From: Candidatus Thorarchaeota archaeon
Lineage (GTDB): Archaea; Asgardarchaeota; Thorarchaeia; Thorarchaeales; Thorarchaeaceae
Length of the DNA stretch: 32,000 bases
Direction: 5' to 3'
Assembly: GCA_008080745.1 (NCBI GenBank)
Contig: SHMX01000004.1
Coordinates: 330,001-362,000, forward strand
In this document: positions 20,154-28,141 of the stretch, one piece after another
Position numbering within the stretch: position 1 is the first letter of the stretch
Layout of the letters: every line of letters begins with the position of its first letter
Notes under the pieces: model-generated
Databases searched by the model: none
Told to the model about the DNA's origin: nothing
What the model saw: only the letters and a program-made list of their open reading frames with translations
Program-made: the position numbers and the translations under genes

Positions 20154-22736
20154 GTGAAAATAAAACGAGTAAGAAGATACAGAGGTCCCAGCATCTATAG
20201 TACAGATATATCAGTAATCAAACCGATAGTTCTTATTGAGGACTCGGATCATATCGCATCTTCGAAAATAGACTCAATTCTGTCCGAATTTGAAATAATA
20301 AATCAAGAAGATGAACTGCATGCTGATAATATATGGGATATCCTCCCCTCTTTGACACTTGCTCTTTTGCAGAATTCTGGCGGAAAACACCTTCAAACTG
20401 CAAAGAGTCTGAATAAATCTGACACAAGGTATGAGTATATAGTTGAGATGGATTTGGAACCAGTGGCGGTATCGGCTGCTTATGAATCGGTCAATATTAT
20501 CAATGATTTAATCAAGGGTGAAAAACCCAACATTTCGAAGATTTTGGAAGAGCTATCTGAAGAACGATATCGTTATGATTTAGGTCCAAGTACAAAATCT
20601 ATTGTAAAAGCAGCTCAAGATAGAGATATTCCGACAATTCGTCTCGATCAATACAGCCTAGTCCAATTAGGTTTTGCCTCGAAAAACAGAAAGATTGAGG
20701 CTGCAACAACTGACGATACGTCTTTTGTTGGTATGGAGATTGCACAATCCAAGTTGATGTCTAAAATAATGCTTCAGAGAGCAAAGCTACCCTATGTTCA
20801 AGGGGAGATGGTAGTTTCAAAAATTCAAATCGAATCAATTGTAGAACAATTAGGTTTTCCTCTGGTTGTAAAACCAGCTGACGCAAGTAAAGGCAGAGGA
20901 GTTACAACCAACATTGAAAATATCGATGATATTTATACGGGATATGAGAAAGCAAAAGAATTCTCAGAGTATATTTTAATTGAGCAATTTGTAGAGGGAA
21001 GGGATTACCGTGTTTTAGTTGCAGGCGGTGAAGTACTAGCAGTAGCTGAACGTATTCCAGCCCATGTTATTGGTGATGGAGAAAAAACTGTTTCAGAATT
21101 GATAAAGTTGGAGAATAACAATCCCCTTAGAGGAGAAGGACATGAACTACCTCTTACGAAAATTTCTGTTGACTCTAGTCTAAAGAAAACCCTCGAATCT
21201 CAAAATATGGATCTTGAAACTGTTCCTAAAGAGGGAGAATTTGTGCAACTAAAGCCAACCGCTAATCTCAGCACCGGGGGAATCGCCATCGATAGAAGTA
21301 AAGAGATTCATCCCGATAATGAGGAGATGGTAATACGATCATCTAGGATTGTTGGACTCGATGTCTGTGGTATCGATTTGATTACAACTGATATCTCAAA
21401 ATCTCTCTGGGAAACAGGAGGGAAAATAATAGAACTGAATACAGCTCCTGGTCTCCGAATGCATCTATTCCCTACTGAGGGCGAAGCCCAAAATGTAGGT
21501 GAGAAAATATTGGATACTCTTTTTTCCAAAGGTGAGAATGGTAGAATCCCCATTGTAGCGATAACTGGAACAAATGGAAAAACAACAGTCACTCTATTGA
21601 CGTCCCATATACTCAGACTAGATGGAAAAAGAATAGGAATGATTACTACTGAAGGAATTCATGTTCAAGGGACTAGAATATTCCGCGGTGACTGTACTGG
21701 TCCATGGTCTAGTGGTGCGATTCTTCGAGACCCTACTGTGGACATAGGCGTATTCGAAACGGCCCGTGGTGGTATTCTAAAACGTGGTCTCGGTTTCGAT
21801 AGAACTCAGGTTTCTGTGTTTCTCAATGTTAGTGAGGAACATCTTGGTGAGCACGGGATTAATACAGTGGACGAGATGGCAGAAGTCAAAGCCTTGCTCT
21901 ATGATATTGTAGATGTTGATGGATACGGAGTGATAAATTGTAGTGATGATAGGGTCTGGAAAGAATCAAAGAGAATAGAAGGGAAAAAGATTGGTTTCTC
22001 TATTGACCCAGATAACCCTCGTCTAGCAGAATTGGAAGAACAAGGTTTTCCTTATATTACTGTGAAATCCAACAGAATTGTGATTGTGGATTCGGGACGT
22101 TCAATCGAAGTATCAGAATTAGATGCTATTCCCTTGACTTACGAAGGGATTGCAGAGTTTAACATAGAGAATGTTTTAGCAGCTTGTGCTGTAGCATATT
22201 CCATGGATGTTTCTGTTGATGTCATTCAATCAGGATTGCTATCATTTTCTCCCACTCCAGAACTGAATCCAGGAAGAGCTAATCTCATAAGAATTGGAAA
22301 TTCATACATCTTTGTAGATTATGCGCATAATATTGCTGCTATGAAATTAATAGCTCGTTTCTTGGGACGTTTGAAATCTAGATGGGGTCTTAGAACACTA
22401 AAAGCCGTAGTGAGTCTTCCTGGAAATAGACGAGAAGTAGAATATTATAAAATCATGCGAATTATTGCTGATTCTTTCGATGAAATCTATATCAAAGAAG
22501 ACAAGGATCTTAGAGAACGAGAAAGGGGCGAAATGACTGAGATTCTCTCCAATACACTTCTCGAATCAGGTTTTCCTGAGGATCACATCTATACTGGTTT
22601 CGTAGAACCAGAGGGACTTCAACAAGCTCTCCAAGATTTGCATGATGATGACTTGATTTTCGTGAATTTCGAAGATGTTGATATTATCCTATCAACAATT
22701 CGTGAATTCAAGAGAAAGAAAATAGGGGGACTCTAA
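20154..22736 (+). CDS. cphA: Cyanophycin synthetase (CphA1-type: N domain, ATP-grasp G domain, Mur-ligase M domain)
   Basis: RGP N-terminus, LGPST, VQLG, VVKP, VAERIPAHVIGDG, TANLSTGGIAID, HPDN, GIDL, ELNTAPGLRMH, RIPIVAITGTNGKTT, GDCTGP, FETARGGILKRGL, EHLG, PGR, DYAHN and IKED, in CphA1 order. GTG start. Confidence 0.95.
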   Translation: MKIKRVRRYRGPSIYSTDISVIKPIVLIEDSDHIASSKIDSILSEFEIINQEDELHADNIWDILPSLTLALLQNSGGKHLQTAKSLNKSDTRYEYIVEMDLEPVAVSAAYESVNIINDLIKGEKPNISKILEELSEERYRYDLGPSTKSIVKAAQDRDIPTIRLDQYSLVQLGFASKNRKIEAATTDDTSFVGMEIAQSKLMSKIMLQRAKLPYVQGEMVVSKIQIESIVEQLGFPLVVKPADASKGRGVTTNIENIDDIYTGYEKAKEFSEYILIEQFVEGRDYRVLVAGGEVLAVAERIPAHVIGDGEKTVSELIKLENNNPLRGEGHELPLTKISVDSSLKKTLESQNMDLETVPKEGEFVQLKPTANLSTGGIAIDRSKEIHPDNEEMVIRSSRIVGLDVCGIDLITTDISKSLWETGGKIIELNTAPGLRMHLFPTEGEAQNVGEKILDTLFSKGENGRIPIVAITGTNGKTTVTLLTSHILRLDGKRIGMITTEGIHVQGTRIFRGDCTGPWSSGAILRDPTVDIGVFETARGGILKRGLGFDRTQVSVFLNVSEEHLGEHGINTVDEMAEVKALLYDIVDVDGYGVINCSDDRVWKESKRIEGKKIGFSIDPDNPRLAELEEQGFPYITVKSNRIVIVDSGRSIEVSELDAIPLTYEGIAEFNIENVLAACAVAYSMDVSVDVIQSGLLSFSPTPELNPGRANLIRIGNSYIFVDYAHNIAAMKLIARFLGRLKSRWGLRTLKAVVSLPGNRREVEYYKIMRIIADSFDEIYIKEDKDLRERERGEMTEILSNTLLESGFPEDHIYTGFVEPEGLQQALQDLHDDDLIFVNFEDVDIILSTIREFKRKKIGGL

Positions 22737-22738
22737 AA

Positions 22739-25252
22739 TTGAAATTGGAGATATCTAAACAACTATTCTTTGGTCCGAATATTTATGTCAATTCTCCGGG
22801 GGTTCTATTTACCTTATCTGTAGATAACAGTGTATCGATTGATAATATCATTCTTGGCGAATCATTTGGCGATGCTTCATCCTTCAAAAGTGCACCTATT
22901 GACATATCTGGAATGAATATCCTTGATGGAATCATTAGTATCGTTTCATACTTTTTTGAAAAACAGAATCGACCTCTAGAATTTCTTACTATAAGTAGTG
23001 AAAAAGAAGAAAATACAGCATTCATAAAGTCGATTTTTCCTCAAGTGATAGGGCACGCTCTAGAATATGTGACCCAGATATTCAGCGACATCTCTTCAGG
23101 GACTACTATAACGGAGAAAGAATGGACTGAACAGTATAATCGTTTCTTTTTGCTCCATGGTGTAGGAATCAATACTAGGCTCATAGCAGATAAGGCACAC
23201 TCTCTAGGGATTCCTGTTCAATCAATACATAGATCCATGATTCAATTTGGTTATGGAAAAAACCGCAAACTTGTTTGGAGAGGCGTACCCGAAGAATCCA
23301 GTGTTCTGGCAGTTGACATAGCAACATACAAATCATCACTGAATAGAATCTTAGAAGATCTGGGATATTATATCCCTCGCAGCCATCTTTCTCTCGATTT
23401 GGAGGACGCAAAACAGATTGCTGATTTACTCGAGTATCCCGTTGTAGTAAAATCTTCTCAAGAACGATTTGGCCGTGGCACATTTGCAGATATTAGAAAC
23501 CCCAGTGAGCTAGAAGAAGCTTACAAGAATTGTAGTTCTTCTGAAGAACGAGTTATTATCCAAGAATTTGTTGGAGGAAATCTGTACCGACTAGTCGTAA
23601 TAGGAGAATCGGTCTTAGCTATTCAGAATAGTACCCCATCAATAACAGGTGATGGTGAACACACCATAAATGAACTAGTAGAGCGAGAAAATAATCGTCC
23701 GATAAGAGGTAATCTTGACGATGCTCCATTATCTAGGATTCCTATTGGACTTGATATGCAACTGACTCTTCAAAGACAGGGATATTCTCTTGATGATGTA
23801 TTAGAAGAGGGAGTTACGGTTCACCTTAGTAGTGTATCAACTGTTGATACTGGAGCAGGTAGTACAGATGTCACCCACAATCTTCATCCACTGAACGAAT
23901 TTCTAGCAAAAAGAATCTCTAAAGCTCTAGGATTATCTATAGCTGAGATTCACATTGTAAGTGATACAATATCTCAACCGTTAGTAGAGGGTCGGGGGAA
24001 GATAGTAGCTTTATCACCCCGAGTAGATCTGAGAACATATCATTATCCCTTAGATTCAGATCGCCCTGATATAGAAAAAATAATGATTGAGAGTTTCTTT
24101 GGGGACGAAGATCCATCAATTCCTCTGATTGCAATATCCGGAAGTCATGGAAAGACAATTGTTACCGCCATTCTAGACCATCTTCTTCGATTAACCGGGT
24201 ATTCAACGGGATTGGCGAACTCTGTTGGTTTGTATATTGATGGGTCGCAAGTTTCTAGAAATTCTGGAGCAAGCATTGATGGTCATAAAGCCATAATGAT
24301 AGATCCTAAGGTCGATTTTGCAATATTAGAACAAAGCTCCCTTGATTCAAAAAGAGAGGGATTAGCATTTCATCGGGCTAGCACTTCTGTTATTTTGAAT
24401 TCTTATGAACGAAGAGAGGTCTACCCTGAGCTTCATGAAGAGATACATCAAGGAAGAGTACTCCTACTTAGATCAACAAAGCCTGATGGATTTTGTGTGT
24501 TGAATGTTGCAATTCCCGAGTTTGACGAACTTGTTAAGGAATCGGCTGGTGAGATAGTACTCATAAGTTTAGACTCAGAACATCCCCGACTAAGGGATAT
24601 CCAGCAGGAGAAACACGTCATTGCTACAGTCATGGGCAAGATGCTTGTGTTGAAGGACAAGGGAAAGATAATACCTCTTGTGAATTATCAGAATGCACCT
24701 CTAACATTTGAGGGAATTGCCGAGTTCAATATTGAGAATCTATTAGCTGCTGCAGTCACAGCCTACGTTAATGGTGTGGAACCGAGCGATATTAGAAATG
24801 CACTACTCTCATTTTCTAATCGTCCAAAACAGTTACCAGGTGCTATGAACCAGTTGGAAATTGATAATAGAACCGTGTTCGTTGATTTAGCAACCAAACC
24901 GAGCAATATCACAATTGCGTCAAGATTTGTTGACCGATACAGAAGAAAAATGGATTTGGGAAATCTATATGGTCTTCTAAGATTGCCAGAGAGAACTGCT
25001 AGTAAAGATATAGAAAAAACACTGACCGAGGTGGCTACTCACTTCGAGAAGGCTCTGGTCTATGATGTGGAACACCCAGATATTATTGCTCAATGTGGAG
25101 GATGTTTTGATGTTGTTGACGATTTTAACGAAGGATTTCAATCTATCTGGTCATTTCTTGAAGATAACGATATTCTTCTCATTACGACAATAAAGCCAAA
25201 TGAAGTCTTAGAATACATCGATGAAATAAAGGAGAATATGAACAAGGAATGA
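22739..25252 (+). CDS. Cyanophycin synthetase paralog (CphA-prime-like), catalytic motifs degenerate
   Basis: Collinear with the upstream CphA over 837 aa (GPN, IQFGYG, ITGDGEHTINELV, HPLN, IPLIAISGSHGKT, PLTFEGIAEFNIEN), but the ExN, NLSTGG, ETARGG, DHLG and DYAHN motifs are lost. TTG start 2 nt after the cphA stop, with GGGGGA upstream. Confidence 0.88.
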   Translation: MKLEISKQLFFGPNIYVNSPGVLFTLSVDNSVSIDNIILGESFGDASSFKSAPIDISGMNILDGIISIVSYFFEKQNRPLEFLTISSEKEENTAFIKSIFPQVIGHALEYVTQIFSDISSGTTITEKEWTEQYNRFFLLHGVGINTRLIADKAHSLGIPVQSIHRSMIQFGYGKNRKLVWRGVPEESSVLAVDIATYKSSLNRILEDLGYYIPRSHLSLDLEDAKQIADLLEYPVVVKSSQERFGRGTFADIRNPSELEEAYKNCSSSEERVIIQEFVGGNLYRLVVIGESVLAIQNSTPSITGDGEHTINELVERENNRPIRGNLDDAPLSRIPIGLDMQLTLQRQGYSLDDVLEEGVTVHLSSVSTVDTGAGSTDVTHNLHPLNEFLAKRISKALGLSIAEIHIVSDTISQPLVEGRGKIVALSPRVDLRTYHYPLDSDRPDIEKIMIESFFGDEDPSIPLIAISGSHGKTIVTAILDHLLRLTGYSTGLANSVGLYIDGSQVSRNSGASIDGHKAIMIDPKVDFAILEQSSLDSKREGLAFHRASTSVILNSYERREVYPELHEEIHQGRVLLLRSTKPDGFCVLNVAIPEFDELVKESAGEIVLISLDSEHPRLRDIQQEKHVIATVMGKMLVLKDKGKIIPLVNYQNAPLTFEGIAEFNIENLLAAAVTAYVNGVEPSDIRNALLSFSNRPKQLPGAMNQLEIDNRTVFVDLATKPSNITIASRFVDRYRRKMDLGNLYGLLRLPERTASKDIEKTLTEVATHFEKALVYDVEHPDIIAQCGGCFDVVDDFNEGFQSIWSFLEDNDILLITTIKPNEVLEYIDEIKENMNKE

Positions 25253-26071: not shown

Positions 26072-28141
26072 TTGGTAAAAATGACTATTTACAAGATGGC
26101 ACTCGAAGAATTCAATCCTACTATCGCCAAGGATATAATTCGAAGACTCTCAATGATTCATAGACCTCAATTTTCGTCCAGCTATTCAGATGCGGTGACA
26201 GAAGTCGAAAAATTTCTTAAAGAATATGATATTGACTATCAAATCAAGAAATTTCCAGCAGACCGTAGAACGAAATTCAACAACTTTCCCTCTTCTCCTT
26301 TATGGGTTCCTAAAAGTGGCTTTTTGGAGATTATCGATCCCGATGTTTCGGAAATAGGTCTCAAATCTCTATTACCAAATAAACGCCTTGCAAGTTTTAG
26401 AGAAGTCCCCTTGTCTATTATACAGCGGAGTATTCCAACTCCTTCAGGCTCTGTAGAATGTGAGTTGGTTGATATTGGTCGTGGATATTCTGATAGAGAT
26501 TATGAGCATATAGATGTGGAAGGAAAAGTTGTTTTAACTTCATCAAATCCAGATAGAATTAGAAAACTTGCAGTTCACAAATATGGAGCCGTCGGTATTG
26601 TTACTGATAGAAGAGAAAGTTTTCCTCTTCAAGAAGAACCTGCACTTAGTAACTATAGACTTTATTCTAGTTTCTGGTGGTATGACGAAGACCCCAGCGC
26701 ATTTGGATTTGTTATCACTCCCTTTCATGGAGATCGACTTAGAAATTATTTGAAGAATAATCAAATCTTTGTTCGTGCCCAGATTGACGCTGAATTTCGA
26801 GATGGAGAGTTTGAGGTCGTTGTAGCGGAGATTAAAGGAAAAACAGACCAAGAAGTCATTGTCACCTCTCATCTAGATCATCCAAAACCCAGTTCTGTTG
26901 ACAATGCTGCAGGGGTTGCTACTTCATTGGAACTAGCTAGGACTCTGAAAGCTCTCATTGATAATGGATCTCTTAACACGCCTATTAGGACGATTAAGTT
27001 CGTTTTTATGAATGAATTCACTGGTTCTTCAGCGTATATTCGAGATAGAATGAATGATGGGTCCCTTGAAAGAATTGTAGGCGGAATTAACATTGATATG
27101 GTGGGTAATGACCAAGAACGTACTGGTGGGTCTTTTCTCGTAGTGCTACCCTCTCTAGCGAATTATTCATACATAGGCCCTGTTGCTAGTTGGCTCTTCT
27201 CCTATTTAATCGGGCATGAGCCAGACTTCGCAGGAAGTCAAGATGTTGCTGACTTCAAGTGGCAGATTGTTCCATTCAGTGGCGGCAGTGATTATTACAT
27301 CTACAATGCTCCCAGTATTGATGTACCTATGATTGGAGTAACAAGCTGGCCTTATACTTACTATCACACCGATAATGACCTACCAGAGATGATATCGGAA
27401 AAAATGATTAAGAAGTACGGTGTATTTGCATCAAGTCTTATCTATCTACTTAGTGATCTCGATGAGCTCTCTGTACCCTGGCTTATTGATATGATAATAT
27501 CCGAATTCGGAAAGAAGGTCGATCTGATAAGTCAAAATCTTCTAACAACAATAGTTACATCTCGAGGAATTCGCATCGGAAAAGGAAAGAAATCTCTAAT
27601 TCAGAGTCAAGATTGGGCATACAATCGCATGATACTACTACGGGAGTCTTATCATGAAGCAATTCTCTCCATTAGACGATTAGTTCCCGATGTATCAGAT
27701 AATTTGATTTGGGACGCTTTTGAAGAGATGAACGATTCTATCAAGATTGAGAAGGAACGATTAGAACGAATTTTTGAGCAATGGGATATCCCTCAGTCTC
27801 GAGAGGAGAAACATGAGGATATGGCAAATCTAATTCCTATTAGAGAGGTTGGTGTGGGTCCAATTGACAGAAGCTATTTCTATTCGGAACTATCATACGA
27901 AGAAGAACGGGAGATTCGAAGAATAGTAGGAGACCTAAGTGTTACTACACTTCCAGTGTTTACACTCATCGATTTCTGGATTGATGGTAGAAACAGTGCA
28001 AAGAAGATTGCTGATAATGTCTATGCTGAAACAGGTTTTAATCTGGATGAAGTTGTCTATAAGCTTCTCGGATTTCTTGAAAAACATAATCTCATTCGAT
28101 TTGGGAAAAATGAAGATACTCAAAGTGAGAAATCTCATTAG
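26072..28141 (+). CDS. M28-family Zn metallopeptidase with PA domain and C-terminal winged helix (DUF4910-like)
   Basis: PA-like insert (DIGRG...DVEGKVVL), ligand motifs SHLDH, VDNAAG, NEFTG, NIDMVG, GGSD and YYHT; C-terminal WIDGRNSAKKIA...LGFLEKHNLI. Starts 7 nt after the cphB stop (TTG; alternative ATG at 26081). Confidence 0.85.
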   Translation: MVKMTIYKMALEEFNPTIAKDIIRRLSMIHRPQFSSSYSDAVTEVEKFLKEYDIDYQIKKFPADRRTKFNNFPSSPLWVPKSGFLEIIDPDVSEIGLKSLLPNKRLASFREVPLSIIQRSIPTPSGSVECELVDIGRGYSDRDYEHIDVEGKVVLTSSNPDRIRKLAVHKYGAVGIVTDRRESFPLQEEPALSNYRLYSSFWWYDEDPSAFGFVITPFHGDRLRNYLKNNQIFVRAQIDAEFRDGEFEVVVAEIKGKTDQEVIVTSHLDHPKPSSVDNAAGVATSLELARTLKALIDNGSLNTPIRTIKFVFMNEFTGSSAYIRDRMNDGSLERIVGGINIDMVGNDQERTGGSFLVVLPSLANYSYIGPVASWLFSYLIGHEPDFAGSQDVADFKWQIVPFSGGSDYYIYNAPSIDVPMIGVTSWPYTYYHTDNDLPEMISEKMIKKYGVFASSLIYLLSDLDELSVPWLIDMIISEFGKKVDLISQNLLTTIVTSRGIRIGKGKKSLIQSQDWAYNRMILLRESYHEAILSIRRLVPDVSDNLIWDAFEEMNDSIKIEKERLERIFEQWDIPQSREEKHEDMANLIPIREVGVGPIDRSYFYSELSYEEEREIRRIVGDLSVTTLPVFTLIDFWIDGRNSAKKIADNVYAETGFNLDEVVYKLLGFLEKHNLIRFGKNEDTQSEKSH

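Follow-up and report, generated by a model that had tools for sequence, protein, structure and literature searches.

In a 32,000-nucleotide stretch of the Candidatus Thorarchaeota archaeon assembly GCA_008080745.1 (contig SHMX01000004.1, positions 330,001 to 362,000 of the forward strand; hereafter the window), the gene of a cyanophycin synthetase, cphA, is followed directly by a second cphA-like gene, here called cphA'. We found that its product, CphA', keeps the fold of the synthetase and the Mg-ATP pocket of one of its domains, that it has lost the residues on which catalysis depends, and that it is maintained beside CphA in every locus in which it is known. CphA' therefore conforms to what is expected of a pseudoenzyme, in that the orthologs have lost catalytic residues while purifying selection has kept their genes intact. 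We consider the chances about even that CphA' has no catalytic role of its own, probably binds a nucleotide and is a subunit of a hetero-oligomer with CphA.

Catalytic residues and fold of CphA'

A preliminary description of the window had presented the open frame of cphA' as an intact, full-length cphA paralog of 837 codons with a ribosome-binding site, and both points were borne out (Table 1). CphA' and the neighbouring CphA share 30% identity over 687 residues (E 3e-96). It matches the sequence of the CphA1 structure 7WAC (E 3.7e-77) and has the same N-G-M architecture and length as CphA1 (TIGR02068), for which structures from Synechocystis sp. UTEX2470 (7LG5, 7LGQ) and Trichodesmium erythraeum (TeCphA1; 7WAC, 7WAE) are available. 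The N domain, the ATP-grasp G domain and the Mur-ligase-like M domain, the last made up of Mcore and Mlid, were recognised from Pfam matches (ATP-grasp and Mur_ligase_M) and from the fold model. On TIGR02068, CphA' scored 420.0 bits, below the curated cut-off that its neighbour passes. These two genes are the only cphA-like genes of the window assembly (3.16 Mb, 98% complete).

Table 1. Features of the cphA-cphA' cluster in window coordinates.
Feature	Position	Strand	Remarks
cphA	20154..22736	+	860 aa; TIGR02068 893.7 bits against a cut-off of 850; catalytic motifs intact; N-domain Cx19HxxEH absent
GGGGG ribosome-binding-like run	22725..22729	+	within the cphA 3' end, 9 nt before the cphA' TTG; read from the sequence
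cphA'	22739..25252	+	837-codon open frame, TTG start; full-length CphA1 paralog, no recognisable active site
CphA' N domain, aa 1-140	22739..23158	+	deletion of ~18 residues where the canonical Cx19HxxEH sits; pLDDT 80-92
CphA' G (ATP-grasp) domain, aa 141-460	23159..24118	+	Mg ligands D/E/N replaced by H405, A424, S426
CphA' Mcore, aa 461-705	24119..24853	+	Mg-ATP pocket kept; catalytic and substrate motifs lost
CphA' M-domain P-loop GSHGKT, aa 468-473	24140..24157	+	identical in 5/5 CphA' sequences
CphA' Mlid, aa 706-837	24854..25249	+	H748 equivalent is T719 (DLATK); GDRRD lost; 13-aa deletion takes LRGR
Cyanophycinase, peptidase S51, 271 aa	25249..26064	+	TIGR02069 202.9 bits
M28/DUF4910 metallopeptidase, 689 aa	26072..28141	+	Pfam matches; final gene of the conserved cluster

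CphA' was mapped onto the numbered residues of the solved CphA1 proteins, together with the published roles of these residues (PMC9262961, PMC9427784). The comparison covered four full-length CphA' orthologs that are 42-48% identical, the window protein included, and motif counts refer to five CphA' sequences. We use "Loki" for the CphA and CphA' of the four paired loci, as one of the relatives is labelled Candidatus Lokiarchaeota at NCBI and belongs to the same family as the window assembly. In the G domain, the three ATP-grasp Mg ligands D, E and N were replaced in the four orthologs by H/H/T/H, A/A/S/A and S/S/S/S, respectively. The equivalent of H267 is F/F/Y/F (F244 in the window), that of R309 has been lost along with a one-residue deletion (N/N/A/N in the four orthologs), and the ANLSTGG motif has disappeared. 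In the M domain, D585/H586 were replaced by RR, SR, SQ or SP (R558/R559 in the window), R731 by Ala and H748 by Thr in 5/5 sequences (A702 and T719 in the window), and ARGG, GDxTGP and GDRRD were lost; the deletion in Mlid removes the RGR-containing LRGR segment. The nine motif substitutions quoted in the preliminary description were all present in these alignments.

The residues concerned are of known importance in CphA1. The H267A mutant and the D585A/H586A double mutant of SuCphA1 are inactive (PMC9262961), an Ala mutant of R309 shows almost no activity, and R731 and H748 are the Mlid contacts to the ATP phosphates in TeCphA1 (PMC9427784). The Cx19HxxEH motif, the primer-generating peptidase site of the CphA1 N domain (PMC9262961), is missing in CphA' as well as in Loki CphA and the CphA of the Asgard family f27; as it is present in 83% of CphA1, it is not strictly defining. 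Taken together, the sequence comparisons indicate that all three known active sites, i.e., those for Asp addition, Arg addition and primer cutting, are lost in CphA'. Conservation of 90% or more among 71 canonical CphA1 sequences was seen at 140 alignment columns, of which 104 were retained in all four Loki CphA proteins, as compared with 54 in CphA'; of the remaining CphA' columns, 24 were fixed to one new residue, 32 were changed and variable, and 30 were mixed. The erosion of these positions is far beyond chance.

The earlier statement that only a P-loop-like GSHGKT remains was right about the P-loop and too narrow in its "only", since the whole Mg-ATP pocket of Mcore is conserved. K472, T473, S495, E531 and F663 are invariant in CphA' and correspond, respectively, to the Mcore Mg-ATP ligands K499, T500, T522 and E558 and the adenine-stacking F692 of TeCphA1 (PMC9427784). 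N497, which stacks on adenine, was replaced by His. The newly fixed residues include H470, H516, E560, T719 and K720, and the PGAMN and DLATK motifs are identical in 5/5 CphA' sequences. The same type of P-loop variant, GTHGKT, is carried by MurC. Since 24 positions are fixed to new residues, the old M site appears to be held in a new state rather than drifting, and this constraint leaves room for a role of CphA' in binding a nucleotide or another ligand. Mg-ATP or ADP probably still binds to the M domain, although no ligation would follow.

An AlphaFold2 model of CphA' was of high confidence, with a predicted local distance difference test (pLDDT) value of 88.3 and a predicted template modelling (pTM) score of 0.83, and its best Foldseek match was TeCphA1 (7wae_A), with a template modelling (TM) score of 0.79 over the full length. 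We found nothing distinctive in the charge and pI of the CphA' domains. The model agrees with the earlier view that CphA' is not CphA2, as N, G, Mcore and Mlid are all predicted. CphA2 (7TA5, 8FXH) is, like CphA', a CphA1 paralog with a disabled active site, but it has an active G domain, a truncated M domain and about 590-640 residues (PMC10273328), whereas CphA' has 837 residues, a full Mcore and Mlid, and a G domain that appears dead. An assignment of CphA' to CphA2 was thus ruled out.

Conservation, pairing and origin of CphA'

In a search of 5.8 billion proteins, the nearest relatives of CphA' were two proteins of 48% and 44% identity, one of them the protein labelled Candidatus Lokiarchaeota; the next matches were ordinary bacterial CphA1 at ~30% identity. 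One further full-length ortholog (P0127) and a fragment (P0128) came from an exhaustive profile search of 1.84 billion representatives. The gene order cphA-cphA'-S51 peptidase-M28/DUF4910 peptidase was found in 4/4 loci with a full-length CphA' (the window, L001, L002 and L024), all of them derived from metagenomes. Proteins at least 49% identical to the window CphA numbered only four among the 5.8 billion, and each is encoded directly upstream of a CphA'. Since all four CphA' loci carry a CphA and all four Loki-type CphA are accompanied by a CphA', the pairing is 4/4 in both directions.

In the window, the four genes run in the same direction and are closely packed. The cphA stop codon (22734-22736) is separated by 2 nt from the cphA' start, and the cphA' stop codon and the cyanophycinase ATG overlap as ATGA (25249-25252). 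The junctions on both sides of cphA' overlap or abut in L001 and L024, and in L002 a gap of 13 nt lies between cphA and cphA', with an overlap 3' of cphA'. The cluster is rare: of 401 genomes in the phylum, only 2 carry it, and the sole other genome of the same genus (97% complete) yielded no such cluster. The window DNA was found in two marine sediment metagenomes of one study, which may be the source of the assembly. In the Asgard families f10 and f27, there is a single cphA with intact motifs; in the f27 locus L011, cphA is followed directly by the cyanophycinase gene with no cphA' between them.

We found that CphA' is kept under purifying selection and is not decaying. The pairwise nonsynonymous divergence (dN) was 0.48-0.59 for CphA', as compared with 0.44-0.49 for CphA, 0.40-0.51 for the cyanophycinase and 0.41-0.48 for the M28 peptidase, so that CphA' evolves only ~1.1-1.2 times faster than CphA; because the proportion of synonymous differences (pS) was saturated (0.76-0.85), no dN/dS ratio was calculated and only dN was compared with that of the neighbouring genes. 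No stop codons or frameshifts occurred in the four orthologs. The identity among orthologs, given for CphA' and CphA by module, was 0.31 and 0.31 for N, 0.49 and 0.57 for G, 0.58 and 0.64 for Mcore, and 0.46 and 0.50 for Mlid. The preliminary description had taken the intact frame as a sign of selection rather than decay, a suggestion upheld by the four intact orthologs, their common gene order and a dN near that of the active neighbour. It had also proposed that frequent loss or frameshifting of the gene at orthologous loci would indicate ordinary pseudogenisation; nothing of the kind was seen, the gene being intact in 4/4 loci.

In maximum-likelihood trees, CphA', Loki CphA and f27 CphA formed one clade (SH-aLRT 100), within which the stem of CphA' measured 3.25 substitutions per site. 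The CphA' and CphA subtrees had the same topology, (L002,(window,(L001,L024))), and comparable terminal branch lengths (0.25-0.80 for CphA' and 0.24-0.65 for CphA). The free tree paired CphA' with f27 CphA, and a sister relationship of CphA' and Loki CphA was 3.5 log-likelihood (lnL) units worse, with a p value of 0.10 in the approximately unbiased test (p-AU). A duplication in the Loki lineage and one before its split from f27 are thus both compatible with the trees. The two Ralstonia cphA copies, described below, were sisters of each other. Descent from the betaproteobacterial CphA', which the preliminary description had put forward for testing with a tree, was rejected, in that a clade of CphA' and the degenerate Ralstonia copy was 45.8 lnL units worse (p-AU 9.4e-5) and CphA' fell within the archaeal CphA clade; a looser constraint uniting CphA' with both Ralstonia copies was 12.4 lnL units worse and was not rejected (p-AU 0.11). 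The history suggested by these trees is one duplication within Archaea, followed by a burst of change and then by co-inheritance with the partner under steady constraint.

A possible subunit of a CphA hetero-oligomer

In the mechanism that we propose, CphA' would be a CphA copy that arose in the archaeal lineage and lost its three catalytic functions in one early burst. It would be made together with active CphA by translational coupling and would take the place of one protomer in a CphA1-type dimer or tetramer, through conserved Gcore and Mcore oligomerisation modules, to give a CphA/CphA' hetero-oligomer in which CphA alone polymerises. Mg-ATP or ADP on the M domain of CphA' could stabilise the assembly or couple it to the energy state. 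CphA1 enzymes are dimers or tetramers whose protomers meet at a large Gcore-Gcore interface and through Mcore contacts (PMC9427784). A heteromer is the most economical reading because of the obligate pairing, the translational coupling, the co-divergence of the two proteins and the retention of the oligomerisation modules.

An interface prediction for the G domains of CphA (residues 138-466) and CphA' (residues 136-462) gave a score of 0.54, whereas the best of three controls scored 0.00. The runs agreed in at least 93% of contacts, with a pLDDT of at least 80 for the partner. The mark applied is reached by 58 of 80 solved complexes and by 2 of 110 mismatched pairs; among those passing, scores of 0.60 or less were obtained for 7 of the 80 solved complexes and for both of the mismatches. 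The prediction therefore weakly supports binding between CphA and CphA'. An engineered SuCphA1 heterodimer, N+G+M+/N-G-M-, still polymerised when primed, with an activity matching that of the other combination assayed (Sharon et al. 2022, PMC9262961). The Loki gene pair, which would supply a live and a triple-dead protomer, looks like a natural version of this heterodimer; the dead protomer of the engineered enzyme differs by four point mutations, whereas CphA' is only 30% identical to its partner. A more specific version of the proposal, in which CphA' would be an obligate triple-dead protomer whose ATP pocket and rebuilt M site (H470, H516, E560, T719, K720) act as an allosteric sensor of energy or amino acids and decide between synthetase and cyanophycinase, seems unlikely to us.

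Several observations weigh against a CphA/CphA' hetero-oligomer. The newly fixed residues of the M site may mean that CphA' has gained a specific function there and is more than a scaffold. The single-copy CphA of f27 seems to need no partner, so that a partner is not a general requirement, and because the Gcore homodimer of CphA1 has been solved, the passing interface score may reflect likeness to it rather than binding by CphA'. In addition, nothing missing from CphA was found to be provided by CphA'. Of 40 conserved CphA1 positions lost in Loki CphA, 6 were kept in CphA', all trivial and none catalytic, and a complementary degeneration of the two proteins was rejected on this ground. As CphA' has no recognisable active site and supplies no catalytic feature, any effect on CphA, or benefit to it, must be structural or regulatory.

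Instead of joining CphA, CphA' may be a free-standing, non-catalytic binder that attaches to cyanophycin, on granules or to hold a primer, or that binds a nucleotide or an amino acid as a sensor, and so affects synthesis or degradation indirectly. We regard this as possible, if doubtful. The Mg-ATP pocket kept in Mcore and the new fixed residues that line the former M site would suit such a binder, as would the N domain and Mlid, which help to guide the polymer in CphA1 (PMC9262961, PMC9427784) and are conserved in CphA', and an operon that co-expresses a synthetase and a cyanophycinase calls for some control. However, R309, ANLSTGG, ARGG, GDxTGP and the RGR of Mlid, which hold the polymer terminus, are all lost, the charge pattern of CphA' does not stand out, and the retained Gcore and Mcore modules, the coupled translation and the weak evidence for a G-G interface agree no less well with a subunit. 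An enzyme of altered chemistry, e.g., an M-domain ATPase or ligase that relies on H470, H516, E531, E557, E560 and K720 and modifies cyanophycin or makes another product, appears quite improbable. Such an enzyme might account for the 24 new positions fixed in 4/4 CphA', several of which place a His, Glu or Lys near the former M site, and for Mcore being the best-conserved module. GSHGKT resembles the P-loop of the MurC type, and DLATK the MurD-type D-x-K-A-T motif. Nevertheless, the second-metal or catalytic His (H586) and the Mlid phosphate contacts R731 and H748 are gone, as are all three ATP-grasp Mg ligands, the segment that matches the site of the incoming amino acid in Mur ligases is deleted, and the SuCphA1 mutants D585A/H586A and H267A are inactive (PMC9262961).

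Very improbable, in turn, is that CphA' is an archaeal member of the betaproteobacterial type, supplying an N-domain primer-cutting peptidase missing from the complete synthetase. Tandem cphA pairs do exist in Betaproteobacteria, as the preliminary description had stated (PMC5178258), and the locus of Ralstonia wenshanensis p56D2 (L021), like the Loki locus, carries a complete cphA next to a second full-length cphA whose substrate-site motifs are degenerate (R309, ANLSTGG, ARGG, GDxTGP and GDRRD lost). The degenerate Ralstonia copy keeps the N-domain C...HxxEH that its complete partner lacks, and the primer-cutting subunit model holds for this pair. It does not hold for the Loki pair, since both copies lack Cx19HxxEH, neither having the Cys or the HxxEH, and CphA' carries a deletion there. 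Moreover, the ATP-grasp Mg ligands, DH, PGR, the P-loop, and the H and N of DDAHN (canonical DYAHN) all survive in the Ralstonia copy, whereas Loki CphA' is without these Mg ligands, DH, PGR and the H/N of DAHN. The degenerate gene lies upstream of the complete one in Ralstonia and downstream in Loki, between cphA and the cyanophycinase gene. A divergent ABC transporter and a DUF1854 gene precede the Ralstonia pair (L021 1-2661), and neither an ABC exporter nor a DUF1854 gene was found beside the Loki cluster. Together with the rejected joint clade, these differences refute the betaproteobacterial type for Loki CphA' at the sequence level. Because Loki CphA' has no recognisable active site at all, a sharing-out of active sites as in the Ralstonia pair cannot explain it. 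We likewise give next to no credence to an ordinary pseudogene in slow decay. The loss of nearly all catalytic residues and the family score below threshold would be expected of one, but four intact full-length orthologs in a conserved cluster order, a dN like that of three neighbouring functional genes at saturated pS, a confidently predicted fold and many invariant positions refute it.

Partner CphA, related genes and wider meaning

In the partner CphA, we noticed a Lys at the H267 position (residue 246) and a Glu at the D585 position (residue 562). The Lys is common to f27 CphA and is found neither in bacterial CphA1 nor in the Asgard CphA of f10; the Glu, a conservative change, is confined to Loki CphA. 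Both are probably tolerated. The region of the N-domain Cx19HxxEH (window 20154-20594) lacks the motif in CphA, in its three orthologs and in the single-copy CphA of f27, so that these archaeal enzymes are expected to depend on primers, unless another source provides them. In an f27 genome (G296), a short run of X within EVNAAPG of the cphA open frame of L011 (1001-3652, minus strand) is an assembly or masking artefact rather than a real insertion. The M28/DUF4910 peptidase closes the cluster in the window (26072-28141), L001 (12035-14074), L002 (12425-14464) and L024 (6383-8419). None of the four cluster genes matched a known beta-Asp-Arg dipeptidase family in Pfam and TIGRFAM scans, which makes this peptidase a candidate for the last step of degradation.

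Other cphA-like genes were noted outside the paired loci. P0133 (L023 8001-10709) is a stand-alone cphA-like gene of 902 aa whose contig also carries genes of bacterial type (LptD, SLT/LysM). No cphA adjoins it, and its erosion pattern is its own, with DH changed to DF and ARGG and GDRRD lost; it is a further independent degenerate CphA lineage. Its position in the free tree was a false joining of two long branches, a constrained archaeal clade being 62 lnL units better, and because of this artefact it was left out of the trees. In Roseateles sp. XES5, cphA has a cyanophycinase gene before it and, immediately after it, a gene for a 601-aa "Mur ligase family protein" (L022 8315-10120); comparable genes on Deinococcus and Legionella plasmids match CphA in its M half only.

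A degenerate second cphA beside cphA has been known in bacteria since the early 2000s, and to our knowledge the function of this second copy has not been established; we also know of no demonstration of cyanophycin metabolism in archaea. Searches of the literature found no paper joining cyanophycin with the term pseudoenzyme and only passing mentions of cyanophycin together with Asgard archaea or Lokiarchaeota, or of archaeal cyanophycin metabolism (PMC9723716). Neither archaea nor duplicated cphA1 genes are treated in a 2023 survey of cyanophycin genes. The present loci document a complete cluster for the synthesis and degradation of cyanophycin in Asgard archaea. Within it, CphA' appears, from the sequence comparisons, to be an independently evolved and more extreme variant of the second-cphA theme. 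The degenerate copy of Ralstonia still has its primer-cutting site, which blurs the question of what a second copy does, whereas Loki CphA' is a clean natural case, having no recognisable active site and being conserved about as well as the enzyme. Since the oligomer architecture of CphA1 limits its use in polymer production, a natural heteromer would also be informative for biotechnology. If CphA' does act as a sensor, it would be a type of regulatory subunit without a described precedent among cyanophycin systems.

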